Part shown: positions 2,955 to 59,633 of the stretch, one piece after another
Numbering within the stretch: the first letter of the stretch is position 1
Layout: the number at the start of each line of letters is the position of its first letter
From: Pirellulales bacterium
Lineage (GTDB): Bacteria; Planctomycetota; Planctomycetia; Pirellulales; PNKZ01
Direction: 5' to 3'
DNA: 64,000 bases
Assembly (NCBI GenBank): GCA_036268995.1
Contig: DATATB010000074.1
Span: 5,195 to 69,194 of the forward strand
Translations under genes and position numbers: made by a program
The notes under the pieces: generated by a model
Database searches by the model: none
What the model was told of the DNA's origin: nothing
Seen by the model: only the letters and a program-made list of their open reading frames with translations

Positions 2955-4349
2955 TTAGGCCGATTGCTGCTCGGCGGCGGCCACCTGGTTCAGCTTGTTG
3001 TACAGCGTTTTCAGGCTGATGCCGAGTTCTTCGGCGGCGCGGGGCTTGTTGCCTTTGTGCCGCTCGAGGGTCTGCTGAATGACCGATAGCTCGATTTCGC
3101 GCAGCGTCTGCGTGGTGCCGGCAATGGCCGGCTTGAAGTGCGGACCGCGCAGCTTCCGCTCGCCGAACTTATTGGGCAGTTGCGCGGCCGCGATCGGCCC
3201 TCGATCGCCGAGGATCGCGGCGTGTTCGATCACGTTGGCCAATTCGCGCACGTTGCCCGGCCAGGAATAGCCTTCGAGCGTTCGCAGGGCGTCGGGCTCG
3301 AACAGCTCATCGCCTGGCTTGAGCGTCGGGCGGAGCCGCTTGAGCAGATGCCGGGACAGCTCGGCAATGTCTTCGATCCGCTCGCGCAGCGCGGGCAGCC
3401 GGACTTCGAACGTGTTGATGCGGAACATCAGGTCCTGGCGAAATTCGCCGTCGGCCACCATTTGTTCCAGGTCGCGGTGCGTCGCGCATACGACCCGCAC
3501 GTCGACGACGAACGATTCGTTGTCCCCCACCCGGCGGATTTCGCCGCTTTCCAACACGCGCAGCAGCTTGGCTTGCATGGCCTTGGGCAGTTCGCCGATT
3601 TCGTCCAAAAATAGCGTGCCGCCGTTGGCCACTTCGAACAGGCCCACGCGGTGCTCGTCGGCGCCGGTAAAGGCGCCCTTGCGATGGCCGAACAGCTCGC
3701 TTTCGATCAGGCTTTCGGGCAAGCCGCCGCAATTGATCGCCACAAACGGCATCTCGGCCCGCAGGCTCTGATCGTGCAACGCCCGAGCCACCAGTTCCTT
3801 GCCGGTGCCGGTTTCGCCCAACACGAGCACGGTGGAATCGGTGGGCGCGATTTTCGAGATCATCTGCCGGACCTGCCGCATGCCGGCCGACGAGCCGATC
3901 AATTGCGAGCCGCCTTCCAGCCGCTCGAGCTGCCGCTTGACCGCGCGGTATTTGTTTGTGAGGTCGCGCTTCTCGGCCACGCGGGCCAGCAGCGCCTTGA
4001 GATCGATCAGCTTGCAGGGCTTGGTCAGATAGTCGAACGCCCCGTGCCGCAGCGCCGAGATCGCGCTGTCCATCGTCGATTTGCCGGTCAGCACCACCGC
4101 CTCGGTGTCGGGCGAAAGCTCCTTGGCCTTGGCGATCACGTCGATGCCCGAGGCGTGCGGCATGTTCAGATCGACGAGGATGCAGTCGTAGGTATTGCGC
4201 TCCAGCGCGGCGATGGCCGTAGCGCCGTCGGGGCAGACGGTGACTTCGTGCCCCAGTCGCGGCAGCTCGACGCTCATCAGCTCCTGCAGCGAGCGTTCGT
4301 CGTCGGCGAACAGCAGCTTGAGGCGATTATGCGGCTTGGTATCGATGAT
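2955..4349 (-). CDS. sigma-54-dependent response regulator (NtrC family: receiver + AAA+ + Fis-type HTH)
   Basis: Receiver domain (KLLFADDERS...ILVDLNMP...KP). AAA+ motifs GETGTGKE, GAFTGA and the ESELFGH loop. C-terminal HTH RAAEELGISLKTLYNKL. The start is uncertain: the ORF track gives ATG at 4499, deep inside the kinase gene. I place it at ATC 4349/4346, just after an AAGGAG at 4359-4354. Confidence 0.9.
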   Translation of the reverse strand: MIDTKPHNRLKLLFADDERSLQELMSVELPRLGHEVTVCPDGATAIAALERNTYDCILVDLNMPHASGIDVIAKAKELSPDTEAVVLTGKSTMDSAISALRHGAFDYLTKPCKLIDLKALLARVAEKRDLTNKYRAVKRQLERLEGGSQLIGSSAGMRQVRQMISKIAPTDSTVLVLGETGTGKELVARALHDQSLRAEMPFVAINCGGLPESLIESELFGHRKGAFTGADEHRVGLFEVANGGTLFLDEIGELPKAMQAKLLRVLESGEIRRVGDNESFVVDVRVVCATHRDLEQMVADGEFRQDLMFRINTFEVRLPALRERIEDIAELSRHLLKRLRPTLKPGDELFEPDALRTLEGYSWPGNVRELANVIEHAAILGDRGPIAAAQLPNKFGERKLRGPHFKPAIAGTTQTLREIELSVIQQTLERHKGNKPRAAEELGISLKTLYNKLNQVAAAEQQSA

Positions 4350-7486: not shown

Positions 7487-9199
7487 ATGCCAACGTCCGA
7501 TCCCACGTCCGGCCCCGATTTGCCAGCCTCGCAGCTCCTCGATCCGGGGCCTCATGCGCTCGGTTGGCGCGGTATTGCTCTGATCGTGGCGTTCGGGGCA
7601 TCCATGCTGCTGATCGGTTTGGGCGGTCGCCGGGTGCTGACGTATCACGAGGTGGTGTTCGCCGAACCGGCCAAGGAAATGCTGGCCACCGGCGACTGGG
7701 TGGTTCCGCACATCGGCGGAATTCCCTTCCTGGACAAGCCCCCCGGAACCGCCTGGGCGATCGCCGCCGCGATGACGCTGCTCGACAGCCACGCTGAGTT
7801 CGTCGTGCGCTTGCCGTCGGTTTTGGCCGCCTTGATTGCCGCGGTGGTGGCCGCGATGCTGGCGGCCCGCTGGTTTGGCCGCTCGTGCGGCCTGCTGACC
7901 GGGCTGTTGTATCTTTCCAGCGTTCACGTGCTGCTGCAGGCCCGGCTGGCCGAAGCCGACACGCTGCTGTCCGCAGGCGTGACGATCGCGATGAGCCTGT
8001 TCGGCCTGGCCATTGTGCCCGGCCCGAGACCGCGACTCGAGGCGCGCTGGGCTCCGTGGCTGTTCTATGCAGCCCTGGCGTGGTGCGCGCTGGCGAAGGC
8101 CGGGATTGGCGTGGCCTTCGTGCTGTTGTCCTGCGCAGCGTATTGCCTGCTGGCGCGCGATCGCCGCGGCGTGCGATTTCTGCTCAGCCCGATCGGCTTG
8201 GCGCTATTCTTCTCGGCCTCGCTTGGCTGGCTGGCATTGGCCGTGTGGCGCTGCCCGTTGGTTTGGGACATTATGGTGCTGCACCATTTTGGCCGCTTCT
8301 CCGGACAGCAGGGACATCACGAGCCGCTCTTCGCGTATTTTTACCTGGTGCCGCTGGTGATGCTGCCGTGGACGCCGCTGGTGGGCATGGGCCTGGCCAG
8401 CGTATTGCGCAAAGGCGGAGCCGCCGATCCGCGCTGGCGGTTTTTGGCCTGCTGGTTTGTGCCGGGCATGTGCCTGCTGATTGCCAGCGCCTATAAATCG
8501 CGGCATTACCCCATCCCGCTGCTGGTGCCGCTGACGATCCTGGCCGCGATGGGGCTGATGCAGTATCTGACCATGCGCTACCGGCTGCAGCGCCCGCGGT
8601 TGGGCCTGCTGGCGGCGCTGACCGTGGCCGGCTCGGCGACCGCGATCGTTATCATCGAGCGATTGCAAGTCAAAAGCTATCACGGCATCGCCGCCCTGGT
8701 GGCCGTGGTGGGAATCGGCCTGCTGGCAGCCATGTATTGCGAAGCGCGTCGCCGGGCGGTCTGGCAAATCGGTGCCATGCTGGCCACCGCCTGGTGCGTG
8801 GCCGTCGGTGTGCAACTGTGGGTGATTCCCGGCCACGACTCTTATCGCCACCAGGTTGAGCTGGCCGCGCGGATCAATCGCGCGGTGCCGGAAGGCAAGA
8901 CGCTGTACATGCTGACCCTGCCGGACAATCAGATCACGTTTTATCTCCAGCCCCATGTAACGCGGATCGACACGGCCATCTATTTCGCCGATCAGGCCGA
9001 ACACGATGCGCCGCAAGAATACTTCGTGCTCGCGCCGATTCACGTGGCGGAAATGCTTTGCGAGCGGGGCGAAGGAAAGCTGCTGGATCGGGCCTCGGAC
9101 ATCAACAGCCGTTACATGACCGAGCGCGACCGGCTGACGTTCCTCGTTTGGAAACCGACCGCCTCGGCAGCCCGCAGTTCGCAGCCGCTGGCCCGCTAG
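7487..9199 (+). CDS. GT-C fold glycosyltransferase, family 39/83 (ArnT/PMT-like)
   Basis: 570 aa and polytopic. N-terminal loop signature EVVFAEPAKEMLATGDWVVPHIGGIPFLDKPPG, typical of ArnT/PMT-type lipid-linked-sugar transferases. Confidence 0.8.
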   Translation: MPTSDPTSGPDLPASQLLDPGPHALGWRGIALIVAFGASMLLIGLGGRRVLTYHEVVFAEPAKEMLATGDWVVPHIGGIPFLDKPPGTAWAIAAAMTLLDSHAEFVVRLPSVLAALIAAVVAAMLAARWFGRSCGLLTGLLYLSSVHVLLQARLAEADTLLSAGVTIAMSLFGLAIVPGPRPRLEARWAPWLFYAALAWCALAKAGIGVAFVLLSCAAYCLLARDRRGVRFLLSPIGLALFFSASLGWLALAVWRCPLVWDIMVLHHFGRFSGQQGHHEPLFAYFYLVPLVMLPWTPLVGMGLASVLRKGGAADPRWRFLACWFVPGMCLLIASAYKSRHYPIPLLVPLTILAAMGLMQYLTMRYRLQRPRLGLLAALTVAGSATAIVIIERLQVKSYHGIAALVAVVGIGLLAAMYCEARRRAVWQIGAMLATAWCVAVGVQLWVIPGHDSYRHQVELAARINRAVPEGKTLYMLTLPDNQITFYLQPHVTRIDTAIYFADQAEHDAPQEYFVLAPIHVAEMLCERGEGKLLDRASDINSRYMTERDRLTFLVWKPTASAARSSQPLAR

Positions 9200-9209
9200 C
9201 AGTTGTGCC

Positions 9210-9275
9210 GTAGCGGAATTCGAGAGAATTCCGGGGGCGCACGATTGCGTCCGGAAGTCTCACGACTTCCGCTAC
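9210..9275. repeat. 66-bp GTAG...CTAC double-hairpin element (family C, copy 1)
   Basis: GTAG-CGGAATTC-GAGA-GAATTCCG ... CGGAAGTC-TCAC-GACTTCCG-CTAC. These are two inverted REP-like units. A near-identical copy is at 10506-10571 and a half copy at 39260-39299. Confidence 0.85.
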
Positions 9276-9277
9276 GG

Positions 9278-9299
9278 CCCACGGACCGCAGTTCGTGGG
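9278..9299. repeat. CCCACGGACCGC(G/A)GT(C/T)CGTGGG palindrome (family B, degenerate copy)
   Basis: cccacggaccgcagttcgtggg. Perfect or near-perfect copies occur at 15280-15303 and 16407-16430. Confidence 0.7.
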
Positions 9300-9431
9300 C
9301 TTGGTTGCGCGTGAAAGTGTGCTTTACCTCGCTGGGCGTGCGAGATAGCATGCTGCCGCGACCGGGGCGTGGATGTCCTGGTTTTGCTTACTGCGCGGCA
9401 CGCTTGAGAGCTCGAAGGAATCGAATCGCCG

Positions 9432-10496
9432 ATGCTCCGCTCGCCCAAGTTGATCTCGCTGGTCTTGCCGGTCTACAACGAGCAGGACGTGCTGCCGCTG
9501 TTGTTGCCGCGATTGCTGGCGCTGGCCGCCCAGTTGCCGTGCGCGGTCGAAATCATCTTTGTCAACGATGGCAGCCGCGATCGCACGGGCGTGCTGCTGG
9601 CCCAAGCGGCCGCCAGCCGGCCGGAAGTCAAGGTCATCGAGTTCTCGCGGAATTTCGGACACCAGGCCGCGATCACGGCCGGCACCGATTTCGCCAGCGG
9701 CGACGCCGTGGTGGTGATGGACGCCGATTTGCAAGACCCGCCGGAACTGGTCCTGGCGATGGTCGAGCAATACGGCCGCGGGTATGACGTGGTTTACGCC
9801 CAGCGGACGGCACGGCATGGCGAGACGCGCTTCAAGCGCGCGACGGCCGCCGTGTTTTACTGGCTGATGCAGCGGCTGGTTCACGAAGATCTGCCGGAAA
9901 ACGCCGGCGACTTCCGGCTGATGAGCCGCGAGGTGGTGGCGGCGCTGCGGCAGCTGCGCGAGCAGCACCGCTTTGTGCGCGGGATGGTCACGTGGGTCGG
10001 ATTTCGCCAGGTGGCGCTCCCCTTCGAGCGGCCGCCCCGTGCGGCCGGCCAGACCAAGTATCCGCTGCGAAAAATGCTGGCCTTCGCCTGGCGGGCGATC
10101 ACTTCATTTTCCGGCGTCCCTTTGCGATTGGCGCTATATGGAGGGGTTGCGCTCACTCTGCTCGCGCTCGGCTACGCCGGCTGGGCCGTGTACAAGGCAG
10201 TAGTGCTCGGCGAAACGGTGCGCGGCTGGGCCTCGCTGGTTTGCCTGCAAGTGGGCCTCTCGGGCATCACCTTCCTGATCATGGGGCTGGTGGGCGACTA
10301 CATCGCGCGCATCTACGAAGAAATCAAAGGCCGGCCGCTGTATATCGTGCGCGGGCTGGCCAACATCACGCTCGAAGGTGCGCAGCATCCGCTGCCACGG
10401 TCAGCCGTCTGCCTGCCCGCCGACGCTCCGGCCACGCTGCCGGCGCCGCACGCCCCACGCTGGGCCGCCGCGGAATCACGCGACGTGGCCGCCTGA
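9432..10496 (+). CDS. family 2 glycosyltransferase, polyprenyl-phosphate sugar synthase type (ArnC/GtrB/DPM1-like)
   Basis: SLVLPVYNE...IFVNDGSRDRT...VVMDADLQDPPE, followed by two C-terminal TM helices. This is the classic GtrB/ArnC architecture. Confidence 0.9.
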   Translation: MLRSPKLISLVLPVYNEQDVLPLLLPRLLALAAQLPCAVEIIFVNDGSRDRTGVLLAQAAASRPEVKVIEFSRNFGHQAAITAGTDFASGDAVVVMDADLQDPPELVLAMVEQYGRGYDVVYAQRTARHGETRFKRATAAVFYWLMQRLVHEDLPENAGDFRLMSREVVAALRQLREQHRFVRGMVTWVGFRQVALPFERPPRAAGQTKYPLRKMLAFAWRAITSFSGVPLRLALYGGVALTLLALGYAGWAVYKAVVLGETVRGWASLVCLQVGLSGITFLIMGLVGDYIARIYEEIKGRPLYIVRGLANITLEGAQHPLPRSAVCLPADAPATLPAPHAPRWAAAESRDVAA

Positions 10497-10505
10497 GTCC
10501 CGCCG

Positions 10506-10571
10506 GTAGCGGAATTCGTAAGAATTCCGAAATGTTGCCGAGAACGTCGGAAGTTTCACGACTTCCGCTAC
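10506..10571. repeat. 66-bp GTAG...CTAC double-hairpin element (family C, copy 2)
   Basis: GTAG-CGGAATTC-GTAA-GAATTCCG ... CGGAAGTT-TCAC-GACTTCCG-CTAC. Same length and orientation as copy 1. It sits 10 nt after the GT2 stop and 6 nt before the convergent PP2C stop. Confidence 0.85.
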
Positions 10572-10576
10572 AGCAT

Positions 10577-11866
10577 CTACGGCGCGTCGAGATCGACGGC
10601 GGGCTTGGCGCCGCGGGCTTGCTTGTTGCGCAGCTGCTGCATCATGAAGCTGATGGCGCGGCAGTAGGAGCGAATGGCGCCGGCGTAGTCTTGTGAAGTC
10701 ATGGCCGTTGATGCCTGGCGGCAGAGGCCGTCGAAGCGGGGCCAATCGATCTCCCAATGCTGTTGCACGGCTTCTTCGCGCAGCGGCTCGACCACGGCCG
10801 CCACGCGCTGGGCGGCGGCCAAATCGAGTTCGCAGACGTACGAACGGTGCGGTCCGCGGCCCAGGCGGGCGCCAGTACCCAGCGCCCGGTCTTCGCCTCC
10901 GCTGAAGCGGCGGAGAAACATTGTCAGCGCCGTGCCCAAGGCGGCAATGCCGAAGCCGGCCGCCGCGTAAAGCTGTTCGGTCAGGGCCAGCATGGCGGCG
11001 GCAAGAATCAAGACGCCCAGCGCGACCCACCAACCGGTCGCGATGGCCGGGCTGGAAGTCCCCCCGGATCGAGAAGCCACCACGCCCGGCGGCATCGACG
11101 CCACGCGCGCCACCAGCACGGTGATGTTGTCGGGACCGCCCCGCAGATTGGCCAGGTCTACCAGCGTGCGCGCCGCTTCCGCAGGCGGAAGCGTGGCCAG
11201 TATGATGCCCAAATCGGTATCGCCCACCGGCCCGCTCAGTCCGTCGCTGCACAGCAGAAACGTATCGCCGACGGCCAGCGGAAACGGCCCCTCGAGATCG
11301 ACTTGCACGTGGTCGGTCGGGCCCAGCGAGCGTGTGATGATATTCTTGGGAATGTAGCCCGGCATTTCGCCTTCGGTCAGCTTGTTGCCGGCCATCATCT
11401 CCCAGACCAGGCTATGGTCGAAGGATAACTGCTCCAGCCGATTGCCGCGCAGGCGATACACGCGGCTATCGCCCACGTGGGCCACGACGGCCCCCTCGGG
11501 CAGTAGCAGCAGCACGCTGGTGGTCGTGCCCATGCCTTTGAAGTCCGGATTGGCCTGACCGCCGGCGTGGATTTTGGCGTTGGCCTCTTCCACCGATTTG
11601 CGAATGGCGTCGGCCGGCGAGCGGTCGAGCAGCTTGTAGTAGGTCAGGCCGACGGTATCCACCGCCATTTTGCTGGCCAGTTCGCCGGCCGCATGAGCGC
11701 CCATGCCGTCGGCCACCATGAACAAGTGTCCGCGGCTCTGCCACTGATCCTGGGTGCCAGCCATGACCTGCTTCAGCGAATCCTGATTGTTCGAGCGGCG
11801 CAGGCCGACGTCGGTGACTTCAGCATGTTCCAAGAAGCTTTGCCAAGCAGGCAGATTGTTGTCCAT
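10577..11866 (-). CDS. PP2C-family Ser/Thr phosphatase with 2 TM and a C-terminal cytoplasmic domain
   Basis: TDVGLRRSNNQDS, FMVADGMGAHAAGE, GDSRVYRL, LLCSDGL and GGPDNITVLVARV. Start taken at the internal ATG 11866 (MDNNLPAWQ); the track ORF extends to 11932. Confidence 0.85.
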   Translation of the reverse strand: MDNNLPAWQSFLEHAEVTDVGLRRSNNQDSLKQVMAGTQDQWQSRGHLFMVADGMGAHAAGELASKMAVDTVGLTYYKLLDRSPADAIRKSVEEANAKIHAGGQANPDFKGMGTTTSVLLLLPEGAVVAHVGDSRVYRLRGNRLEQLSFDHSLVWEMMAGNKLTEGEMPGYIPKNIITRSLGPTDHVQVDLEGPFPLAVGDTFLLCSDGLSGPVGDTDLGIILATLPPAEAARTLVDLANLRGGPDNITVLVARVASMPPGVVASRSGGTSSPAIATGWWVALGVLILAAAMLALTEQLYAAAGFGIAALGTALTMFLRRFSGGEDRALGTGARLGRGPHRSYVCELDLAAAQRVAAVVEPLREEAVQQHWEIDWPRFDGLCRQASTAMTSQDYAGAIRSYCRAISFMMQQLRNKQARGAKPAVDLDAP

Positions 11867-11996
11867 CGTCGTCCTGGAAAACAGCCGATTGTGCTTTCTT
11901 GTGCCAAGTACCCAGCGTTTGGATTTTAACATGCCAGCATAACACGAAACAGCCGGACTTGTGCGGATCGTGGACTACTGGTCGCATCCTCCGGTC

Positions 11997-15279: not shown

Positions 15280-15303
15280 GCCCACGGACCGCGGTCCGTG
15301 GGC
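15280..15303. repeat. 24-bp perfect palindrome GCCCACGGACCGCGGTCCGTGGGC (family B) flanked by GTGAA direct repeats
   Basis: Perfect self-complementarity. GTGAA lies immediately on both sides (15275-15279 and 15304-15308). It sits in the 104-nt mlaE-mlaF gap. Confidence 0.85.
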
Positions 15304-16406: not shown

Positions 16407-16430
16407 CCCCACGGACTGCGGTCCGTGGGG
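16407..16430. repeat. CCCCACGGACTGCGGTCCGTGGGG palindrome (family B)
   Basis: One central mismatch relative to the copy at 15280. It sits just downstream of the clpC terminator. Confidence 0.8.
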
Positions 16431-19806: not shown

Positions 19807-20003
19807 GCGGCTCGATTCCTTTCATCCAGGCGCTCGCCGGCGCCGGCTATCATGCGGTCAAGGCGCGGGAATTCTAACCCCCACAGGAAATCGAGGCAAG
19901 GCAACCAGAACCACGGCTTAGGCTTAGTGCGCTTGCCGCCACCCGCCAACGGCAGTCCTGGAGCCCGGTGGCTGAAATTCCCCCGCCAAAAAACGAAAAC
20001 ATT

Positions 20004-20102
20004 GAACAGAAGATCGCAAAGAGCGCAAAGACGATTTCATTCTGTGACTGACCTTCTCTCTTCTTCCTTTTCGTTCTTCGCGCTCTTCGCGATCTTCTGT
20101 TC
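20004..20102. repeat. imperfect ~31-bp inverted repeat (GAACAGAAGATCGCAAAGAGCGCAAAG family)
   Basis: The left arm at 20004-20034 pairs with the right arm at 20071-20102 (2 substitutions + 1 indel). A related, more diverged element is at 62609-62726. Confidence 0.75.
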
Positions 20103-20157
20103 GATCCTCCTCGTTTCTCGTGTTCCCAGTCGTCATGCGACGAGTTGAACGGCTCGT

Positions 20158-21771
20158 TTGGCGCGTGTTCCGCCAGCGTGCACAATGAAGCCAGCTATGC
20201 GATACACCTTAACTGATGCTGCCCAGCGCGCGGTGACTGCCGCCGCCGCTTGGAATCGATCGTCGCCAGATGCCGGCACTTTGGGTCCCCTGCTGCTGCT
20301 GGGGCTGCTGGCCGAAAGTGAATGCCGCGCGGCCGGCATGTTGACTTGCCATGCCGTCTCGGCCGAAAGCGTGCGCCAGCATTGGCCCGACATCCGGCCG
20401 GCCGAAAGCTCGAGCCCGGATCGAGCGGCCGAAGTCCACTTGTTGGAATTGCTGTCGCTGGTTTCCCAGCGGTTGCCCGACGGTGCGCTGCTGGCAGGCT
20501 TTGCCACCGAACATCTGCTGCTCGGTTTGCTGCTGGCCGGCGACGAAACGTCCGCCTGGCTGGGCGAGCAGGGCTTGTCAGCCGCCGATGTCGAAGCCGA
20601 GATCTGCCGCATTTATGGATGTGCCGCCGGACCGGCCGCGGCAATCGACTTTCCGCCTGGCGATGAAATCCTATCGGTGCCAGCAGTCGAGATTTCCGCC
20701 GGTCGGGCCGATCCGCCCAGCGGCAGCGTGCTGTTTCGCATTCTGGACGCTGCCGCCAATCGGGCACGCGAGGGGCTGCGCGTCGTCGAAGATTACGCCC
20801 GCTTCGGCCTCAACGACGCCGCGCTGACTGCGGAGCTCAAGACGTTGCGCCACGAGCTGGCCGGTGCGTTGGCCCACTTGCCGGCGGCCGCCTTGCTCGC
20901 CAGCCGCGACACGCCGGGCGACGTGGGCACGGCCATTTCGACCACGAGCGAAGCCCTGCGCGAAGGCATCGACGGCGTGCTGGCCGCCAATCTCAAGCGA
21001 CTGCAAGAAGCGTTGCGTAGCTTGGAAGAATACGGCAAGCTGGTCTCGCCCGCCGTGGGTCCAGCGCTGGAACGCCTGCGCTATCGCAGCTATTCCATCG
21101 AGCAGCGCGTGCAATTGGGTTCCCGGCCGCGACGGCTGCTGGTCGATGCACGATTGTATGTGCTGGTCGACGGGCGCGCGACGCTCGACGAGTTCACCGA
21201 GCTACTCAAAACTCTGATCGCGTCCGGTGTCGACGTGATCCAGCTTCGCGACAAATCGCTGCCGGATGCCGCCTTGATCGAGCGTGGGCAGCGGGCTCGT
21301 GAGCTGACGCGCGACAGCCAGACCCTGTTCATCATGAACGACCGGGCTGACCTGGCATTGGCCAGCGAAGCGGATGGCGTCCACGTGGGCCAGGACGAAT
21401 TGCCGGTGGCCCATGCGCGGAGCATGCTCGGCCAAGGCAGTTTGGTCGGCGTTTCGACGCATAGCCTGGAGCAGGCCTGCCAGGCCGCGCGGCAAGCGGC
21501 CGACTACATCGGCGTGGGCCCGGTGTTTCGCTCCGGCACCAAGGATTTTGCCAGCTTTCCCGGACTGGAGCTACTGCGCGAGGTCCGCAGCCACACGCAG
21601 CTTCCGGCCTTTGCCATCGGCGGCATCGATCTGGGCAATGTTTCCCGCGTGCTGGAAACCGGCTTTCGCCGCATCGCCGTCTCCGGCGCCGTCTGCCGCG
21701 CCTTGGACCCGGCCGCCGCCGTAGCGCGTCTGCGAGTTGCACTCGATGCCGCGTGTTCGGCATCTCAGTAG
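20158..21771 (+). CDS. thiE: thiamine-phosphate synthase (ThiE) fused to an N-terminal double Clp_N-like repeat and a helical linker domain
   Basis: C-terminal ThiE text: LYVLVDG...GVDVIQLRDK...GVHVGQDELP...VGVSTHS...DYIGVGPVF...FAIGGI. The N-terminus carries two Clp_N-like repeats (LLLLGLLAES..; TEHLLLGLLLAGDE). The middle segment ILDAAANRAREGLRVVEDYARF matches long-form ThiE N-extensions. Start uncertain (20158 or a nearby ATG). Confidence 0.8.
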   Translation: MARVPPACTMKPAMRYTLTDAAQRAVTAAAAWNRSSPDAGTLGPLLLLGLLAESECRAAGMLTCHAVSAESVRQHWPDIRPAESSSPDRAAEVHLLELLSLVSQRLPDGALLAGFATEHLLLGLLLAGDETSAWLGEQGLSAADVEAEICRIYGCAAGPAAAIDFPPGDEILSVPAVEISAGRADPPSGSVLFRILDAAANRAREGLRVVEDYARFGLNDAALTAELKTLRHELAGALAHLPAAALLASRDTPGDVGTAISTTSEALREGIDGVLAANLKRLQEALRSLEEYGKLVSPAVGPALERLRYRSYSIEQRVQLGSRPRRLLVDARLYVLVDGRATLDEFTELLKTLIASGVDVIQLRDKSLPDAALIERGQRARELTRDSQTLFIMNDRADLALASEADGVHVGQDELPVAHARSMLGQGSLVGVSTHSLEQACQAARQAADYIGVGPVFRSGTKDFASFPGLELLREVRSHTQLPAFAIGGIDLGNVSRVLETGFRRIAVSGAVCRALDPAAAVARLRVALDAACSASQ

Positions 21772-21811
21772 GTCCGGCGAGCCGAGCCGGACTTGGGCCA
21801 CAGCAGCGCGA

Positions 21812-22456
21812 TTAGTGCCCCAGTGCCGCTCGGCTCGCGGCACCTATTTGGGCGGCACCGACGGAGTTGGTCGCTGGCTTAGCTGCCGGCTGGGCGGGCG
21901 TGCTGAGCAGCTCGCGGAGCAGGCTGTCGATCTCGACGACGGTTTCGGAGCCGAAGCCGACCCATCGGCCGCGTATCTGGCCTTCGCCGTCCAGGACCAG
22001 CGTCGTGGGGTAGCCGCGAAAACCAATCGCGTCGGAAACGGCCTTACGCGTCCGCCAATGGGCGTCGGTATAAATCGGCATATCGGCCGGACTGCTTTTG
22101 AGGAAGTTGGCCGTCTGCTGACGCAGCTCGGGCACGTTCTCTTCCCCGGGGCTGCACGACACCAAGGCCGCCTGGAAACGGGGCGAGTCCTGCCAATGGC
22201 GGCTCAGCTCGACCATGTGCGGAAATTCGACGCGGCAAGGGGCGCACCAGGTGCCCCAGAAATTCAGCAGCACGATCTTGCCCCGCAGGTCGGCCAGATC
22301 GAGCGGGCGGCCGCCACCGACCAGCGGCTGCAAGTCCACGTCGGTCAGTTTGGCCTGCTTCTGCGGAACGCTGATCCAAGCCAACAGCAGGCCGGCGACC
22401 AGCAGGACCGCGACCGCGCCATTCAGCCAATTGATCGAAAAGCGGGAACCCAACAC
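21812..22456 (-). CDS. TlpA/ResA-like thiol-disulfide oxidoreductase (redoxin)
   Basis: Signal anchor, then LLNFWGTWCAPCRVEFP (CxxC thioredoxin fold). Confidence 0.85.
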   Translation of the reverse strand: MLGSRFSINWLNGAVAVLLVAGLLLAWISVPQKQAKLTDVDLQPLVGGGRPLDLADLRGKIVLLNFWGTWCAPCRVEFPHMVELSRHWQDSPRFQAALVSCSPGEENVPELRQQTANFLKSSPADMPIYTDAHWRTRKAVSDAIGFRGYPTTLVLDGEGQIRGRWVGFGSETVVEIDSLLRELLSTPAQPAAKPATNSVGAAQIGAASRAALGH

Positions 22457-24023: not shown

Positions 24024-24038
24024 AGGAAAATGCGGAAG

Positions 24039-25707: not shown

Positions 25708-25778
25708 GTAGGGTGGGCACTGCCCACCGTTTGCGCCCCGCATGAATCGGGGCCAATGGTGGGCAGTGCCCACCCTAC
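25708..25778. repeat. 71-bp GTAG...CTAC element with 21-bp perfect inverted arms (family E); likely bidirectional terminator
   Basis: GTAGGGTGGGCACTGCCCACC, a 29-nt spacer, then GGTGGGCAGTGCCCACCCTAC. Each arm is itself a small hairpin. It lies between convergent stops at 25687 and 25792. Confidence 0.85.
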
Positions 25779-30634: not shown

Positions 30635-31009
30635 GGCAGACTCCTCGGCCAGTACGACCGCGGAATCGGGGCGAAGTATAGAGAGAATCGCCAAGCGCTA
30701 GAAGGCGAATCGCTGGCCGCTTCCGTGGCCCAAAGGTGGCGAGCCGAGCTTGTCATCCGGACTTGCCCATTTTCTGGCCCGCCTTGGCGCCGCTGATAGC
30801 ATCGACTGCCGCCGCCAGGCCACTTGAGGAGCGAAGGAGGAATGATGAGTGCCGAGTGATGAATGATGAATGACGTATGCGGAACGGACGACTGGTAACG
30901 GCAAATCCTGCCTTCCACACGGTGACTTTTCCGTAACGTCCAACGGCGCAGCGAACTTTGCCCCCCACTCCGACGTTTCAATAAGTATTCGGATTGGGGG
31001 GCGATTGAC

Positions 31010-38082: not shown

Positions 38083-38193
38083 GAAGTGAATAGTGGAAAG
38101 TGAAAAGTGAAAAATGAAAAATGTCGGACAAGGGTCGCTCGCCGAAGCACTCGTTCTTTTACTTTCCACTTTTCACTGTTCACTTTTCACTTC
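38083..38193. repeat. ~37-bp imperfect inverted repeat (GAAGTGAAAAGTGAA family) filling the whole intergenic gap
   Basis: The left arm gaagtgaatagtggaaagtgaaaagtgaaaaatgaaaa pairs with ttttactttccacttttcactgttcacttttcacttc, with a spacer of about 36 nt. It occupies 111 of the 124 nt between the GTPase stop and the polX start. Confidence 0.8.
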
Positions 38194-39227: not shown

Positions 39228-39299
39228 GCATAAAGCCGCGACCGCTGGTCGCGAGCGGACGGAATTCTCACGAGACGGAATTCTCACGAATTCCGCTAC
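39228..39299. repeat. family D hairpin plus a half/duplicated family C unit
   Basis: cataaagccgcgaccgctggtcgcg (39228-39252), then cggaattctcacgaga-cggaattctcacgaattccgctac ending in CTAC (39260-39299). The loop read in GTAG orientation is GTGA. Confidence 0.75.
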
Positions 39300-39416
39300 G
39301 ACAAAAAAACAGCCGCGGAGCCATCCGAAGATGACCCCGCGGCCGGCGTGGGTCTCCGTGCAAGACGGAAAGTCGAAATCGCCGGCGGGCTTGGCGTTGG
39401 CCCCGCCGCGGCGTTG

Positions 39417-40550
39417 TTAGCGGTTCGAAGCCCGCCAGCCGTCTTCGTCGGCCAGCGGCATGATCGTGGTGGTCGGGCCGACGCCTGTGTCTGCGGCGGC
39501 CGGAGTCAGATCGGGTGCATTCCAAGCGACCGGCGTATACGGATAGCTCGGGATGCTGGTCGTGCGGTTTTCGGGATCCAGCAGCCGCAAATGGCTCGAA
39601 GAGTTCACCTTCGAGCCCGGCGTCAGATTCGGATCCGGAATCGGCCGCATCGGCTGTTGCGTGCTGCCGGGTGCGGTGTTATTCGGGTTCGCGGGCGGCG
39701 TGCCGCCCTGGTTTGCCGGCGCCGACGTGTTCGGAGCAGCCCCGTAGCCGCTCGTGGCCGGATAGCCGGGATTGGCGTACTGCTGGGCCGGATAGTTCGA
39801 CGTTGCGGCGGGTGCTGAACCCGGATTGCCGTACGTCGGTCCGGCGCTAGCCTGCGGCGCGAACGTGGAAGGCGTGCTGTAATTGGGTGCGCCGTACGTT
39901 GGCGCGCCATAGTTCGGCGCTCCGTAGGGCGGCGTGTAGGGTGCGGGAGTCGGCGGCAGTGCCGAAGCCGATCCGTACGTCGGCACGCGATAAGCCGGCG
40001 CTTGCAACAGCGAGGGCGCGCCGGTCGCGGCGCCATAGGTTGCCGTGCCGCCCGGGCAAGTCGGGCAGGCAGCCGGAGCGGCGTAGGTGGCCGGTGCGAC
40101 GGCTTGCGGGGCGTAGCTGGTCGGCACATAGGTCGTCGAAGGCACGTACGTGGTGGTGGCAGCCACGGGCGCCGGGCAAACCGTGCACGGCCGATTGCTG
40201 TACACCAGCCGATACGAGGTAAACGGCACCATCCGCGTTTGCTGCACGAAGCTCGTCACCGGCTTGTAGCTGGTGACGGGGCAGCCCGAGCAAGGATCAG
40301 AGCTGACCACCGGCTGGTAGCTGGTGACCGGCACTGTGACCGACTGGCAGCGATAACTGGTCTGCGGCACGTAGCTCACCGTCTGCGCTTGAGCGCACGG
40401 GTTGCAGGCCACCGCGGCGGGCTGTTGGCACGAATTGCATTTCTTGCATTTGAACAAGTCGCACAGGCTAGCGTGACTCTCACCGGGCAGCGCCAAGAGC
40501 ATCGCCAGGCCCGCCAGCGCGGCCAGCCATCGATGATTGCGGATGTTCAT
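39417..40550 (-). CDS. secreted low-complexity Cys/Tyr/Pro/Thr-rich protein
   Basis: Signal peptide MNIRNHRWLAALAGLAMLLALPGESHA. A Cys-rich head (CDLFKCKKCNSCQQPAAVACNPC) is followed by repeated (V/T)SY.P / TYG.P motifs. No enzyme motif. Confidence 0.6.
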   Translation of the reverse strand: MNIRNHRWLAALAGLAMLLALPGESHASLCDLFKCKKCNSCQQPAAVACNPCAQAQTVSYVPQTSYRCQSVTVPVTSYQPVVSSDPCSGCPVTSYKPVTSFVQQTRMVPFTSYRLVYSNRPCTVCPAPVAATTTYVPSTTYVPTSYAPQAVAPATYAAPAACPTCPGGTATYGAATGAPSLLQAPAYRVPTYGSASALPPTPAPYTPPYGAPNYGAPTYGAPNYSTPSTFAPQASAGPTYGNPGSAPAATSNYPAQQYANPGYPATSGYGAAPNTSAPANQGGTPPANPNNTAPGSTQQPMRPIPDPNLTPGSKVNSSSHLRLLDPENRTTSIPSYPYTPVAWNAPDLTPAAADTGVGPTTTIMPLADEDGWRASNR

Positions 40551-46305: not shown

Positions 46306-49194
46306 GTGGGTTGGCCGTCCATGAATCATCCAGCGCTAGACGCGGACCAACCGTTCGGATGTCCGACGATGGCCGAACTCGAGCGGTTTGGCCTGGGAGA
46401 CTTGCCGGACGAAACGCTGGAGACGATTGCGCAGCACGTGGCCTTTTGCGCCGCTTGCGAACAGAGGCTTGGCCGCCTGTCGTCGTGCGACGACCGGGTC
46501 ACGATGGCGCTGCGTGCCCAGGTCGCGCCGCCGGCCTACGACGAAGCCGAGCTGGCGCGCGTCGTCCGCCAAATCGACGAGGTGTCGCGGACGCCCGCCC
46601 CCCCTGCCGACGCCCAAGCGCCGGACGCATTGACCTCATCGATCGTCATCCAACCGATGCCACGGGAGATCGAGCCGCTGGTGCGGTCCTTGCTGGCCAG
46701 CGGCTTGATTGGGGCGGACGAATTGACACGCTTGCGCTCAAATCTTCCGTCCGCCGATCCCGGGCGCGAAGCCGAACAACTGGCGCTCGAATTGGTACGT
46801 TGCGGCAAGCTCACGCGCTACCAGGCGGCCGTGCTGTATCAGCAGCGGCGCGATCCGCTGGTGCTGGGAGAGTATGTCGTGCTCGATCGGATCGGCGCGG
46901 GCGGAATGGGTCAGGTGTTCAAAGCCCGGCACGGCCGCATGGATCGGCTGGTGGCGATCAAGCTAGTCAGCCCGAGCCTGGTCGACGCGCCCGAAGCGGT
47001 CGATCGGTTTCAGCGCGAGGTTCGCGCGGTTGCCCGGCTCGAGCATGCGAACATCGTGACCGCGTTCGATGCCGGCGAACTGGATGGCACGCCGTTCCTG
47101 GTGATGCAGCTTGTCGACGGCAGCGACCTGTCGTCAGTGGTCAAGCAACGCGGCCCACTGGCCGTCCCCGTCGCGATCGAGTGCATCCGGCAGGCAGCCA
47201 AGGGGCTGGCCTACGCGCATCGCAAGGGGGTGATTCACCGCGATGTTAAGCCATCGAACATGCTGCTGGACGCCGACGGCACGATCAAAATCTTGGACCT
47301 GGGCCTGGCACGCTTCGAGGACGCCGGCGACGGGCTGACGTGTTCCGACCAGGTGATGGGCTCGATCGACTACATGAGTCCCGAGCAAGCGGTCGACTCC
47401 AGGCAAGCCGATGCCCGCTCGGATATCTACAGTCTGGGCTGCACGCTGTGGCATCTGCTCTCGGGGCGGAAGCTCTACCAGGCGGACACGCCGGTCACGC
47501 GCATCTTGCGCCATCGCGAAGCGCCGATCCCTTCGCTTTGTCAGGAGCGCGATGACGTGCCTGCCGCGCTGGACGGGGTCTTTCGCAAGCTGGTCGCCAA
47601 GCAACCGGCCGACCGCTATCAATCGATGGACGAAGTCGCCGCAGCGCTGGAGCAGTTGCAGGCCCAAATCCCCTCGCAAGCCGGCCAGCGCTCGAAGATA
47701 TTGGCCGAATTGCACGCAGCCGCCGCGATCGCTGGCGGAAATCGCCCTGTCGAGCCGACAGCCGAAGTGAAAGGGCCGCCGCCGGCGATTGAGGCCACCG
47801 CGAGCTATGCGGCTGCTGAGGTCGAAACGGATCCCACAAGTGAATGGGTTGTCCCTCGGCTCGCGGAACAAGGTAAAGACGAACGGGAGCCGGTCCCGCA
47901 CGGCGCTCGCCGGCACAGGCCGCGCGGCATGCTGATGGCCGGCGCATCGCTGCTCGGGCTGATCGCGGTTCTGGGCTTGATCGTAGCGCTGCGCTTGCGC
48001 CCGGCGGAGCATGCGGCCGACGTGCGCAACCTCGCGGCGAGCCGCGACCGCAACGCAGCGGCTCCATCGAGCGCGTCCCCGCAACTCGCCGCGCTGACGC
48101 CTGGCGTTCGCCCCTCGCCGATTGATCCGCCCGACCCATTGGTCGCTCCCTTCGACGCCCAGCAAGCCCACGCCGGTCAGGAGGCCTGGGCCAAATACTT
48201 GAACACGGGCGTCGAGCAGACCAACTCGATCGGCATGACGCTGGTGCTGATCCCGCCCGGTGAGTTCATGATGGGCAGCGCGCCCGAGCAGGCCGCCGGG
48301 GGCGCGAAACTGGCCGAGGACGCCAAACTAACACCCAGTGACTACCTTTGGACACGGTTGAAAGAGGAAGGGCCACAACATCGGGTCGCGATCACGAAAC
48401 CCTACTGGCTTGGCGCGACGGAAGTGACGATCGGCCAGTTCAAGAAGTTTGTCGAGGCCACCGGGTACGTGACCGAGGCCGAGCAGTTCGGGTTCGGCAA
48501 TTCAAGCGCGACGAACGTGGATGACAAGGTGACGCCGGAAATGAAGAAGATAACCTGGCGCGCACCAGGCTACCCCGTTACCGACGATTCCCCGGTAACG
48601 CAAATCACCTGGAACGATTGCATCGTGTTCTGTAATTGGTTGAGCGAACAAGAAAAGTTGCAGCCCTGTTATCAGCAAGATGCCAACGCCGGCTGGGAAC
48701 TGAATGTAGCAGGCACACTCCGTGTGCCGTCGCCACGCAGCGAGGAAGGTCGCGACACACGGAGTGTGCCTACTACATTCGAAGATTTCGGCTACCGGCT
48801 ACCGACCGAAGCCGAGTGGGAATACGCCTGCCGCGCCGGCACGACGACGCAGTTTTCATTCGGCGACGATCCGGCCATGCTCGACATCTATGGGTGGTTC
48901 AATAAGAACGCCGGTGAAAGTGCCCATCCCGTGGGCTCGAAGGCCGCAAATCCATTTGGCCTGTTTGACATGCACGGCAACGTCTACGAGTGGTGCCACG
49001 ATTTCTACGCGGCGGACTACTACTCGAAGTCCCCGCCACGCGACCCAGTCGGCCCGTCTTCTGGTAGGTATCGCGTGAGCCGTGGCGGTTTCTGGTGCGT
49101 CTATCCGGTTTGCTGCCGCTCGGCGTTTCGCTACCCCTACAAGCCCGCCCTCCGACACGAGAGCTTCGGTTTTCGGGTGCTGCGGGGGAAATAG
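46306..49194 (+). CDS. Ser/Thr protein kinase with an N-terminal Cys-motif region, a TM and a C-terminal FGE/SUMF1-type domain
   Basis: N-terminal HVAFCAACEQRL. Kinase motifs GAGGMGQVFKA, HRDVKPSNMLL, DLGLAR and SPEQ. A TM (LMAGASLLGLIAVLGLIVAL). FGE-sulfatase domain (GMTLVLIPPGEFMMGS, RLPTEAEWEYACRAGT, GNVYEWCHD, RGGFW). Start at GTG 46306 or ATG 46321. Confidence 0.9.
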   Translation: MGWPSMNHPALDADQPFGCPTMAELERFGLGDLPDETLETIAQHVAFCAACEQRLGRLSSCDDRVTMALRAQVAPPAYDEAELARVVRQIDEVSRTPAPPADAQAPDALTSSIVIQPMPREIEPLVRSLLASGLIGADELTRLRSNLPSADPGREAEQLALELVRCGKLTRYQAAVLYQQRRDPLVLGEYVVLDRIGAGGMGQVFKARHGRMDRLVAIKLVSPSLVDAPEAVDRFQREVRAVARLEHANIVTAFDAGELDGTPFLVMQLVDGSDLSSVVKQRGPLAVPVAIECIRQAAKGLAYAHRKGVIHRDVKPSNMLLDADGTIKILDLGLARFEDAGDGLTCSDQVMGSIDYMSPEQAVDSRQADARSDIYSLGCTLWHLLSGRKLYQADTPVTRILRHREAPIPSLCQERDDVPAALDGVFRKLVAKQPADRYQSMDEVAAALEQLQAQIPSQAGQRSKILAELHAAAAIAGGNRPVEPTAEVKGPPPAIEATASYAAAEVETDPTSEWVVPRLAEQGKDEREPVPHGARRHRPRGMLMAGASLLGLIAVLGLIVALRLRPAEHAADVRNLAASRDRNAAAPSSASPQLAALTPGVRPSPIDPPDPLVAPFDAQQAHAGQEAWAKYLNTGVEQTNSIGMTLVLIPPGEFMMGSAPEQAAGGAKLAEDAKLTPSDYLWTRLKEEGPQHRVAITKPYWLGATEVTIGQFKKFVEATGYVTEAEQFGFGNSSATNVDDKVTPEMKKITWRAPGYPVTDDSPVTQITWNDCIVFCNWLSEQEKLQPCYQQDANAGWELNVAGTLRVPSPRSEEGRDTRSVPTTFEDFGYRLPTEAEWEYACRAGTTTQFSFGDDPAMLDIYGWFNKNAGESAHPVGSKAANPFGLFDMHGNVYEWCHDFYAADYYSKSPPRDPVGPSSGRYRVSRGGFWCVYPVCCRSAFRYPYKPALRHESFGFRVLRGK
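48706..48776. repeat. 71-bp GTAG...CTAC double-hairpin element embedded in frame inside the kinase-FGE gene
   Basis: GTAGCAGGCACACTCCGTGTG, a 29-nt spacer, then CACACGGAGTGTGCCTACTAC. The arms are 21 bp with 1 mismatch. This is the same 21/29/21 geometry as the intergenic element at 25708-25778. It translates as ..VAGTLRVPSPRSEEGRDTRSVPTT.. Confidence 0.85.
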
Positions 49195-57645: not shown

Positions 57646-57702
57646 GGGAGGGCGAGGCTCCTGCCGAGCCGCATGATGGCTCGGCAGGAGCCTCGCCCTC
57701 CC
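57646..57702. repeat. 25-bp perfect-stem hairpin (7-nt loop) between zwf and rpiA
   Basis: GGGAGGGCGAGGCTCCTGCCGAGCC-GCATGAT-GGCTCGGCAGGAGCCTCGCCCTCCC. The right side continues as GCTAC (CTAC end at 57704-57707). No U-run follows. Confidence 0.85.
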
Positions 57703-57729
57703 GCTACGTGAAAACCCTTGTTATGAGGA

Positions 57730-58428: not shown

Positions 58429-59633
58429 GCGGTTCCGTGCTCTCCGTCAACGGCGGCTCCTCCAGCATCAAGTTCGCCCTCTATAAAAGGGGTCAGAACT
58501 ATTTTTCGCAGAAAAATAGTTCTGACCCCTTTATTTCGGGGCAGATCGAGCGGATCGGGTCGGCGGAGGCGCGGCTGCGGGTCGGGGACGAGCGGCGGGC
58601 GGTCGCGGCGGCCGATCATGCGCAGGCGGTGCTGCGGTTGGTCGAGTGGTTTCAAGAGCACGGCGGGCTGGACGACGTGGCGGCCATCGGGCATCGCATC
58701 GTGCACGGCGGACAGCACTACGTGCAGCCGGCGCGGGTCACGCCCGAAATGCTGGCAGAGCTCAAGCGGCTGGTGCCGATCGATCCGACGCACCTGCCCG
58801 GCGAGATCGCGCTCATCGAGGCCTTCGAGCGCCACCTGCCCAAGGTGCCGCAAGTGGCCTGTTTCGACACGGCCTTTCATCGCCAACTGCCGCGCGTGGC
58901 CTGGCTGCTGCCGCTTCCCCGCCGTTACGCGGCGCAGGGCGTGCGGCGCTACGGCTTTCACGGCTTGTCGTTCACCTATCTGATGGCCGAGCTCGCGCGT
59001 TTGGATCCGGCGGCGGCTGGCGGCCGCGTGGTGCTGGCCCATCTCGGGTCGGGAGCGAGCATGGCGGCCGTGCGCGGCGGCCAGCCGATCGACACCACCA
59101 TGTCGTTCACGCCGGCCGCCGGCCTGGTGATGGGCACGCGCACCGGCGACATCGATGCTGGCGTGCTCACGTACTTGATGCGGACCGAGGGGCTGAACGC
59201 CGATCAAATCGACGACCTGGTGAACCATCAATCCGGCCTGCTGGGCATGTCCGAGACCAGCGCCGACATGCGCGATTTGCAAGCACGCCGCCACGAAGAT
59301 CCACGGGCCGACGACGCAGTGACCGGCTTTTGCTATTCGGCCCGCAAATGGATCGGAGCACTGACCGCGATCCTGGGCGGAATCGAGACTCTGGTGTTCA
59401 GCGGCGGCATCGGCGAGAACGCGCCGGCTGTCCGAGCCGAAATCTGCCAGGGGCTCGAACATCTCGGCATGCGCTTGGACGCCGGGCGCAATGAACAGAC
59501 CGAAGCGGTGATTTCGTCCGGCGAGAGCCCCTGCTGCGTGCGGGTTATCCACACCAATGAGGAAGCGGTGATCGTGGAACAGGTGCGGCAATTGATCGCC
59601 GGCCCATCGGTAAAGAAAGGCAGCACGGCATGA
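58425..59633 (+). CDS. ackA: acetate kinase
   Basis: [46 protein letters not shown] and GGIGEN. ATG 58425 overlaps the rpiA stop, and the ackA stop overlaps the xfp start. Confidence 0.9.
58485..58531. repeat. AT-rich 21-bp perfect inverted repeat (5-nt loop) embedded in frame in ackA
   Basis: AAAGGGGTCAGAACTATTTTT-CGCAG-AAAAATAGTTCTGACCCCTTT. About one-third GC within a GC-rich gene. It encodes ..[19 protein letters not shown].. in the variable loop between the SSSIKF motif and IERIG. Confidence 0.9.

Follow-up and report, generated by a model that had tools for sequence, protein, structure and literature searches.

Repetitive extragenic palindromic (REP) sequences typically exceed 100 copies within one genome, and populations of their inverted doublets, termed REPINs, are usually pictured as lineage-specific and strictly vertical. 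In the planctomycete Rhodopirellula baltica, REPs beginning with GTAG fall into several families, form heterodimers with the GTAG ends on the outside, include intragenic copies, and are accompanied by dedicated REP-associated tyrosine transposases (RAYTs), among them RB11751 (PMC3733652). Work on TnpA-REP of Stenotrophomonas maltophilia demonstrated in vitro that cleavage needs GTAG, with GTTG and GTAC mutants being dead, that both an unbroken stem and a G as the first loop base (G13) are required on single-stranded DNA, and that the reverse-complement loop abolishes binding (PMC8266576). Here we describe two 66-bp elements, hereafter doublet A (positions 9210-9275) and doublet B (positions 10506-10571), that lie on either side of a GT2 glycosyltransferase gene in a 64,000-nucleotide stretch of contig DATATB010000074.1, from a Pirellulales bacterium; this whole stretch is referred to as the window. 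We consider it very probable that these elements are REPINs, namely GTAG-outside inverted doublets of a 24-nt GTAG-tagged REP that is moved by a RAYT acting in trans. The doublets are real but ordinary, representing a further member of the described GTAG-REP class, here in an uncultured Pirellulales-like genome.

Both doublets follow the same plan: GTAG, an 8-bp stem with a 4-nt loop, 18 nt, an inverted unit and CTAC. Doublet A reads GTAG CGGAATTC GAGA GAATTCCG, followed by the spacer GGGGCGCACGATTGCGTC and then CGGAAGTC TCAC GACTTCCG CTAC. Its left unit (9210-9233, plus strand) matches the unit pattern GTAGCGGAANTCNNNNGANTTCCG with 0 mismatches; its right unit (9252-9275, minus strand) reads GTAG CGGAAGTC-GTGA-GACTTCCG on its own strand, and the 18-nt spacer between them (9234-9251) has a 4-5-bp mini-hairpin of its own. 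Doublet B reads GTAG CGGAATTC GTAA GAATTCCG, spacer AAATGTTGCCGAGAACGT (10530-10547), and CGGAAGTT TCAC GACTTCCG CTAC. Its left unit (10506-10529, plus strand) was assigned by sequence and by its match to the pattern, and its right unit (10548-10571, minus strand), GTAG CGGAAGTC-GTGA-AACTTCCG, carries one stem mismatch. That the two elements are equal in length and share their orientation had been pointed out in a sequence-only reading of this DNA, and the sequence at both sites agrees; in addition, stem position 6 is T-A in the left unit and G-C in the right unit of each. The two doublets are identical at 46 of 66 positions, with 22 of 24 matching in the left units, 23 of 24 in the right units and only 1 of 18 in the spacers, and the longest unbroken identity between them is 16 nt. 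Since the spacers are unrelated, it is the 24-nt unit together with its architecture that is repeated, and the doublets do not derive from a single 66-bp master sequence.

A fifth unit, GTAGCGGAATTCGTGAGAATTCCG, stands singly on the minus strand at 39276-39299 and is adjoined by a 16-nt partial tandem duplicate of itself, CGGAATTCTCACGAGA, at 39260-39275. The loops of the five units, taken on the strand that carries GTAG, are GAGA, GTGA, GTAA, GTGA and GTGA, which agrees with the three loop sequences listed in the sequence-only reading. A search of the window with the pattern GTAGCGGAANTCNNNNGANTTCCG, allowing up to 3 mismatches, returned 7 matches against a chance expectation of 0.04, and these consist of the five units plus two palindromic self-hits. 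Likewise, the window contains 9 instances of GTAG ahead of a perfect hairpin of 7 bp or more, compared to 0.75 in shuffled sequence. Folded by itself as single-stranded DNA, the left unit of doublet A formed an 8-bp hairpin of -7.8 kcal/mol (z = -6.5) and the right unit one of -8.6 kcal/mol, the z scores of the unit folds being around -5 to -6. No target-site duplication was found in the flanks of either doublet.

To describe the family beyond the window, species-representative genomes were scanned in 8-kb stretches with the exact pattern, and all family-wide counts given below are among the matches listed. Two sets of units were used, one of 157 exact units and one of 263 units in which up to 2 mismatches were allowed. 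The unit was present in more than 114 of the 8-kb stretches, almost all of them from Planctomycetota (Pirellulales, Gemmataceae and Planctomycetaceae) and a few from Verrucomicrobiota, and as many as about 17 different blocks of 8 kb among those listed came from one assembly. Compensatory changes affect two pairs of the stem. The free stem pair is Watson-Crick in 153 of the 157 exact units (G-C 67, T-A 40, C-G 39, A-T 7), and compensatory stem-pair swaps account for 38 of 61 two-mismatch units, compared to about 1.5% expected for random double changes.

Loop composition across the 263 units was G (88%), Y (92%), N and A (89%). The sequence-only reading held that the loops stay within the GNRA class, a tetraloop motif of RNA. 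That rule is true of the five window units only: loop position 3 is C in 98 of the 263 units (37%), GCCA is as frequent as GTGA, and only 51 of 125 four-base loops near RAYT genes are GNRA. Its apparent validity in the window is a small-sample effect, given how frequent C at position 3 and GCCA are across the family, and the loop rule is G-Y-N-A, not GNRA.

Because the stem pattern is its own reverse complement, the orientation of a unit can be read separately from its tag and from its loop. Perfect hairpins with this stem pattern carried an exact GTAG or CTAC tag in 191 of 201 cases and a one-base variant in the other 10, a count to be read with the caveat that the loci had been fetched using a pattern that included GTAG. 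The coupling of tag to loop is free of the fetching bias: in all 172 informative hairpins the tag stood on the side predicted by the loop, with GTAG located 5' on the strand whose loop reads G..A, indicating that the unit is strand-specific.

Units that lie close together mostly form GTAG-outside doublets. Among 107 close pairs, 61 were GTAG-outside, 16 were GTAG-inside and 30 were in tandem, with spacers mostly of 11-22 nt and a mode of 15-18 nt. As in both window copies, the partners differed at the covarying sixth stem pair in 51 of the 61 GTAG-outside doublets, making these heterodimers; such a difference leaves the long cruciform less stable, compared to the two small hairpins. In JAIEMG01 and CAVVPN01 the spacers were homologous between copies, in both orientations, indicating that in those genomes the doublet was copied as a whole.

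RAYT genes were sought by comparing the R. baltica RB11751 sequence, taken from the supplement of PMC3733652, with six-frame open reading frames (ORFs) of all fetched DNA; earlier searches of the six-frame ORFs of the window and 114 loci, using motif regular expressions and an E. coli RayT sequence, had returned nothing convincing. One strong match was obtained, to a 195-aa ORF in locus L071 from a Verrucomicrobiia assembly (phmmer, 1.3e-46), and this gene is flanked on both sides by the 24-nt unit family. Upstream of it lies a GTAG-inside pair that includes GTAGCGGAAGTCGTGAGACTTCCG, a 24-mer identical to the right unit of doublet A (9252-9275, minus strand), while downstream lies a GTAG-outside doublet whose tag supplies the RAYT gene with its TAG stop codon. 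Similar arrangements were seen at two further loci. In L225 (Akkermansiaceae), units of the form GTAG-CGGAATTC-GTGA/GCGA flank the RAYT gene P0002 and match all 24 nt of the window singleton, and P0051 in L224 (Planctomycetaceae) is flanked by the covariant CCGAA[G/C]TC. The link to RAYTs that had been proposed for the window is borne out in these other genomes, where the same or nearly the same unit flanks RB11751-type Y1 genes.

The association extends to the RB11751 clade as a whole, which comprises at least 275 clusters. Of 64 loci that carry a RAYT from the clade, 36 contain GTAG followed by a perfect hairpin, compared to 0-4 in shuffles; 125 of 137 such hairpins had 4-nt loops, and 109 of these 125 read G..A. 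Their stems vary from RAYT to RAYT and include CCGAATTC, CTGAATTC, GGATCTT, CGGAAGCG, CGGCTTTC, AGCGGAC and others. The motifs MPDHxH and Y-x3-NPxR (Y108, N112, P113, R115) were invariant in 28 clade sequences, and the NCBIfam model REP_Tyr_transpos (NF047646) was matched by 28 of 28 sampled members. The sole PDB match of the clade profile was 4ER8, E. coli TnpA-REP (E = 4.6e-7), in an alignment that pairs both the HUH motif and the catalytic tyrosine. Judged by these motifs and profile matches, RB11751-type proteins are RAYTs. Members of the clade (P0001-P0120) are called 'hypothetical protein' in NCBI records and RayT at the Joint Genome Institute (JGI).

The window family has close counterparts in R. 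baltica. The R. baltica repeats GTAG-20 to GTAG-22 (Di Nocera, De Gregorio and Rocco 2013, PMC3733652) come from the same phylum and share with the window a 5' GTAG, a stem of about 8 bp and heterodimers of the GTAG-outside ('HH') type, and both genomes hold several families, including intragenic copies that remain in frame. RB11751 and the unit-linked RAYT of L071 belong to the same clade (1.3e-46). In L121, GTAG-CCGAATTC-GCCA, one swapped base pair away from the window unit, flanks a RAYT that shares 60% identity with RB11751. The window stem is CGGAAKTC, compared to CCGAATTC for R. baltica GTAG-21, to judge from the REP-encoded peptides in the supplement of that report and from L121. The host of the window differs from R. 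baltica in being an uncultured Pirellulales-like organism, and the unit-linked RAYTs are known from other genomes.

Three further systems are comparable. The S. maltophilia REPtron Sm (Corneloup et al. 2021, PMC8266576) likewise combines GTAG with an 8-bp perfect palindrome and a short loop; in contrast, its loop is 3 nt rather than the 4 nt (G-Y-N-A) of the window family, the RAYTs are only distantly related, and it is known from in vitro assays, whereas the Planctomycetes-Verrucomicrobia-Chlamydiae (PVC) clade is known here from sequence. The conserved loop G of the window family parallels G13 of S. maltophilia and so does not constitute evidence for an RNA tetraloop. E. coli REPs and bacterial interspersed mosaic elements (BIMEs), served by TnpA-REP (4ER8; PMC3333891, PMC3479197), share the HUH/Y1 enzyme, the 5' GTAG, inverted pairing and short linkers. 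However, E. coli REPs are imperfect and bulged and BIME linkers are defined motifs, whereas the stems of the window family are perfect and its spacers unrelated. The REPINs of Pseudomonas fluorescens (Bertels and Rainey 2011, PMC3116915) resemble the window doublets in consisting of two inverted REPs with a short spacer and in leaving singletons as remnants. There, as in some of the sampled genomes, the whole doublet is copied together with its spacer, whereas the window doublets share no spacer similarity.

These observations are consistent with the following model. Each unit, when exposed on single-stranded DNA, would fold into an 8-bp hairpin that is recognized by a RAYT supplied in trans, presumably an HUH/Y1 single-strand endonuclease of the RB11751 clade and a distant relative of E. 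coli TnpA-REP. Recognition would depend on GTAG at the 5' end, on a perfect stem and on a loop that starts with G and ends with A. By analogy with the characterized enzymes, a RAYT of this clade would nick nearby and rejoin the strand, allowing units and doublets to spread into intergenic DNA without target-site duplication, and the window's own genome presumably encodes such an enzyme. The copies in the window would represent independent insertions just past stop codons that have since been inherited passively and are decaying slowly by point mutation, and the GT2 gene would be an ordinary resident gene that lies between the doublets by chance. The conserved loop G, the strand coupling of tag and loop and the perfect stems fit the published TnpA-REP cleavage model. 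Taken together with the anatomy of the doublets, the covariation of the stem, the excess of GTAG-outside pairs and the units flanking RAYT genes, they support the REP/REPIN interpretation put forward in the sequence-only reading.

Several findings weigh against this interpretation. Strand-specific binding and cleavage of single-stranded REPs by a RAYT have been demonstrated only in E. coli, S. maltophilia and Marinomonas (PMC8266576). Proteins of the RB11751 clade score below curated cut-offs, reaching 20.6 of the 23 bits set for Pfam Y1_Tnp and 38-44 of the 80 bits set by NCBIfam. The 64-kb window, which comes from a metagenome contig, holds only 5 units, and no RAYT gene was found in it. None of the 80 metagenome loci listed with a RAYT came from the samples of the window (Ga0376688, Ga0376646, Ga0376690 and Ga0376669), and the RAYTs P0101, P0091, P0030, P0017 and P0016 each came from samples unrelated to it. 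The unrelated spacers of doublets A and B give no direct sign that these two were copied as whole doublets in this genome. Finally, the absence of doublet A from the related contig L221, described below, would fit either a gain or a loss. A RAYT from the same JGI series, P0107 (Ga0376668), lies on a contig with a GC content of 57%, compared to 63.7% for the window, and is accompanied by different long GTAG palindromes, indicating that its host is another organism.

The strongest competing explanation, which we nonetheless consider improbable, is that the doublets are host RNA elements, that is, 3'-end stabilizers, attenuators or terminators of the transcripts of GT2 and of the upstream PMT_2 gene, with GNRA tetraloops, and that their repetition reflects selection for this role. 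Their position is compatible with such a function. The PMT_2 (GT-C type) glycosyltransferase gene (7487-9199, plus strand) ends with a stop codon 10 nt upstream of doublet A; doublet B begins 9 nt past the stop codon of GT2 (9432-10496, plus strand; polyprenyl-phosphate glycosyltransferase type, Pfam Glycos_transf_2, 3.2e-32), a gene that lies outside either element, and sits between GT2 and a convergent PP2C phosphatase gene (10577-11932, minus strand) whose stop codon is 5 nt away. All three loci of the 24-nt unit family in the window are intergenic and downstream of a stop codon, all six of its extragenic GTAG elements are at gene 3' ends, and stable folds are obtained for the complete doublets (-26.2 and -17.4 kcal/mol). 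Furthermore, the stem mutations of doublet B in the window and in the near-identical contig L002 both amount to G-T wobbles on the GT2 sense strand, and a like argument has been made for REPs in general by Di Nocera 2013 (PMC3733652).

Other evidence argues against an RNA role. A terminator scan of both strands from 9000 to 10800 found no terminator-like or promoter-like site around the doublets, no T run follows either of them, and no Rfam match was found in the window at gathering thresholds; the doublets are not intrinsic (Rho-independent) terminators. A GC-rich hairpin followed by T7, terminator-like when read by eye, is located at about 39305-39345 on the minus strand and ends the gene at 39417-40550 (minus strand). 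The singleton REP at 39276 sits immediately downstream of this hairpin rather than replacing it, and so is not the terminator there. Moreover, the G..A loop belongs to the strand that carries GTAG, so any one transcript of a doublet shows UNNC in one of its two loops, and GNRA loops make up only 41% of those near RAYT genes. Transposase genes are flanked by these same units, and copies differ between close relatives, with mutations in both tag and stem. A secondary, co-opted effect of the doublets on mRNA decay is possible.

A second explanation, to which we assign very little weight, views GT2 as a cassette that is excised, duplicated or transferred by recombination between direct doublets, as the sequence-only reading had suggested in part by proposing that the flanking copies could drive deletion or duplication of the gene. 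Two doublets in the same orientation do occupy adjacent intergenic regions. However, six near-identical contigs all retain GT2 and retain both doublets wherever their flanks are covered, which is the outcome of the related-strain comparison that the same reading had called for. The differences among them are point changes: in L003 the CTAC of doublet A has become CAAC (GTTG on the tag strand), and in L002-L006 doublet B shows a C to T change in the stem plus a change in the spacer. L221 belongs to the same sample series, and its GT2 is 93% identical; it carries doublet B at the orthologous position, with a degenerate left unit (GTAC tag and two stem changes), a homologous spacer that is 2 nt longer, at 20 nt, and a perfect right unit. 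Doublet A is absent from L221, as is the 24-bp palindrome that adjoins it. The presence of doublet B without doublet A suggests independent insertions of different age rather than a unit acquired together around GT2. In addition, a longest identity of 16 nt between doublets with unrelated spacers is short for homologous recombination, and chromosomal homologues of GT2, which point to Pirellulales as the source, are widespread in that order and in other Planctomycetes. These comparisons between strains and relatives lead us to reject the idea that repeats bound a GT2 cassette. A blastn comparison of the window with the fetched genome loci found none that is closely related.

The GT2 orthologue of L222 (84% identical) offers the cassette explanation some further support in that another repeat, roughly 60 nt long (CCCTCACCTRGCCTCTCCC...GGGAGAGGGATTTGG...GTTATTTTTCGG), lies on both sides of it in direct orientation, at L222 380-571 and 1637-1730; the orthologue of L223 (71% identical) has none at its flanks. 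The L222 repeats suggest that the intergenic spaces around GT2 may accept small repeats in several lineages. In other strains of this population, L002 (positions 1-608), L005 and L006, the C-terminal part of a DDE (IS4/IS1634-like) transposase and an insertion sequence (IS) end replace the end of the PMT_2 gene. The IS stops 15 nt short of doublet A on its upstream side, at a junction equivalent to window position 9195, and one contig breaks inside the IS.

Least probable of all is that the doublets are conventional miniature inverted-repeat transposable elements, with GTAG...CTAC as terminal inverted repeats moved by a DDE transposase: their inverted termini, their small size and the nearby DDE transposase IS end in some strains are what such elements would predict, but the missing target-site duplication at either copy and the unrelated spacers rule this out, the repeated module being the 24-nt unit rather than 66 bp, the units also occurring singly and in tandem, the hairpin covarying, the loop being strand-specific, the associated gene encoding an HUH/Y1 enzyme and the IS of L002 sharing nothing with the doublet.

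Identification of the elements as REPINs has consequences for annotation. The doublets and at least four other GTAG-tagged families of the window should be masked as REP/REPIN, and GTAG hairpin doublets should not be annotated as regulatory sites, terminators or small ORFs. By the same token, RB11751-type proteins now listed as 'hypothetical' by NCBI would be annotated as RAYTs, and GT2 as an ordinary resident gene, not a cassette. Their scores below curated Pfam and NCBIfam thresholds and their 'hypothetical' label suggest that the RB11751-type RAYT clade is probably under-counted.

Most interesting in what remains is a unit that is near-identical across two phyla, alongside a RAYT clade that lies beneath curated thresholds. 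A reading that we put forward tentatively, and regard as rather unlikely, is that the recognition module, composed of GTAG, the stem C-S-GAA-N-TC and the G-Y-N-A loop, stays near-constant together with its RB11751-type RAYT from several orders of Planctomycetota into Verrucomicrobiota, so that RAYTs sharing only about 50-60% identity are accompanied by REPs just one compensatory base-pair change apart. Such conservation would reflect either an unusually old vertical REPIN-RAYT partnership across the PVC superphylum, with an almost frozen DNA code, or a REPtron that moved horizontally between phyla more than once. If true, it would sit uneasily with the lineage-specific, strictly vertical picture of REPINs. 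The spread of the unit over Planctomycetota and Verrucomicrobiota provides a natural data set for the co-evolution of RAYTs with their DNA substrates and for the choice of substrates in biochemical work on this clade.

The window contains several distinct GTAG-hairpin families in addition to the 24-nt unit, in keeping with the expectation that this genome hosts several REPIN families. The GTAG...CTAC elements that had been flagged at 25708-25778 and 48706-48776, and a CTAC end at 57707, all proved to be real, and one at 21768-21846 was added to them. The second doublet family (25708-25778; GTAG-GGTGGGC-ACT-GCCCACC, two units) lies between convergent genes, and the same unit occurs in the Pirellulales loci L065, L086 and L103. 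The third (48706-48776; GTAG-nA-GGCACAC-TCC-GTGTGCC) is located in frame within ORF 46306-49194, which encodes Pkinase and FGE-sulfatase domains; here, the conserved YRLPTEAEWEYA motif is immediately preceded by 24 residues (VAGTLRVPSPRSEEGRDTRSVPTT) that the doublet (48706-48777) contributes, and the doublet looks like an intragenic REP insertion that may be tolerated in a loop of the FGE-sulfatase domain. The fourth family (21768-21846; GTAG-GTCCGGC-GAGCCGA-GCCGGAC and ATAG-GTGCCGC-GAGCCGA-GCGGCAC), also represented in L030, consists of units with compensatory stem differences around a common GAGCCGA loop. An upstream ThiD2/TMP-TENI gene uses the TAG within the GTAG of this doublet (21769-21771) as its stop codon, and the RAYT gene of L071 ends likewise. 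Finally, a perfect hairpin with a 25-bp stem, tagged GTAGC, is found on the minus strand at 57646-57707, 10 nt past a G6PD gene. Long GTAG-tagged palindromes of this style flank the RAYT gene P0107 (L219, about 2885-2960 and 3600-3672).

Other repeats of the window are untagged or of low complexity. The 24-bp palindrome that abuts doublet A, GCCCACGGACCGCAGTTCGTGGGC (9277-9300), belongs to a separate family without a GTAG tag, GCCCACGGACCGCGGTCCGTGGGC, of which there are three copies (9277-9300, 15280-15303 and 16407-16430). A perfect 22-bp palindrome occurs at 58486-58532 (AAAGGGGTCAGAACTATTTTTC / GAAAAATAGTTCTGACCCCTTT), and a near-identical one is present in the Pirellulales locus L118. Intergenic AT-rich low-complexity inverted repeats at 38083-38193 and 20001-20105 have arms of 31-37 nt of the GTGAAAAGTGAAAA and GATCGCAAAGAGCGCAAAGA types, and related direct repeats of the TGAATGATGAATG type are located at 24031 and 30829-30886.

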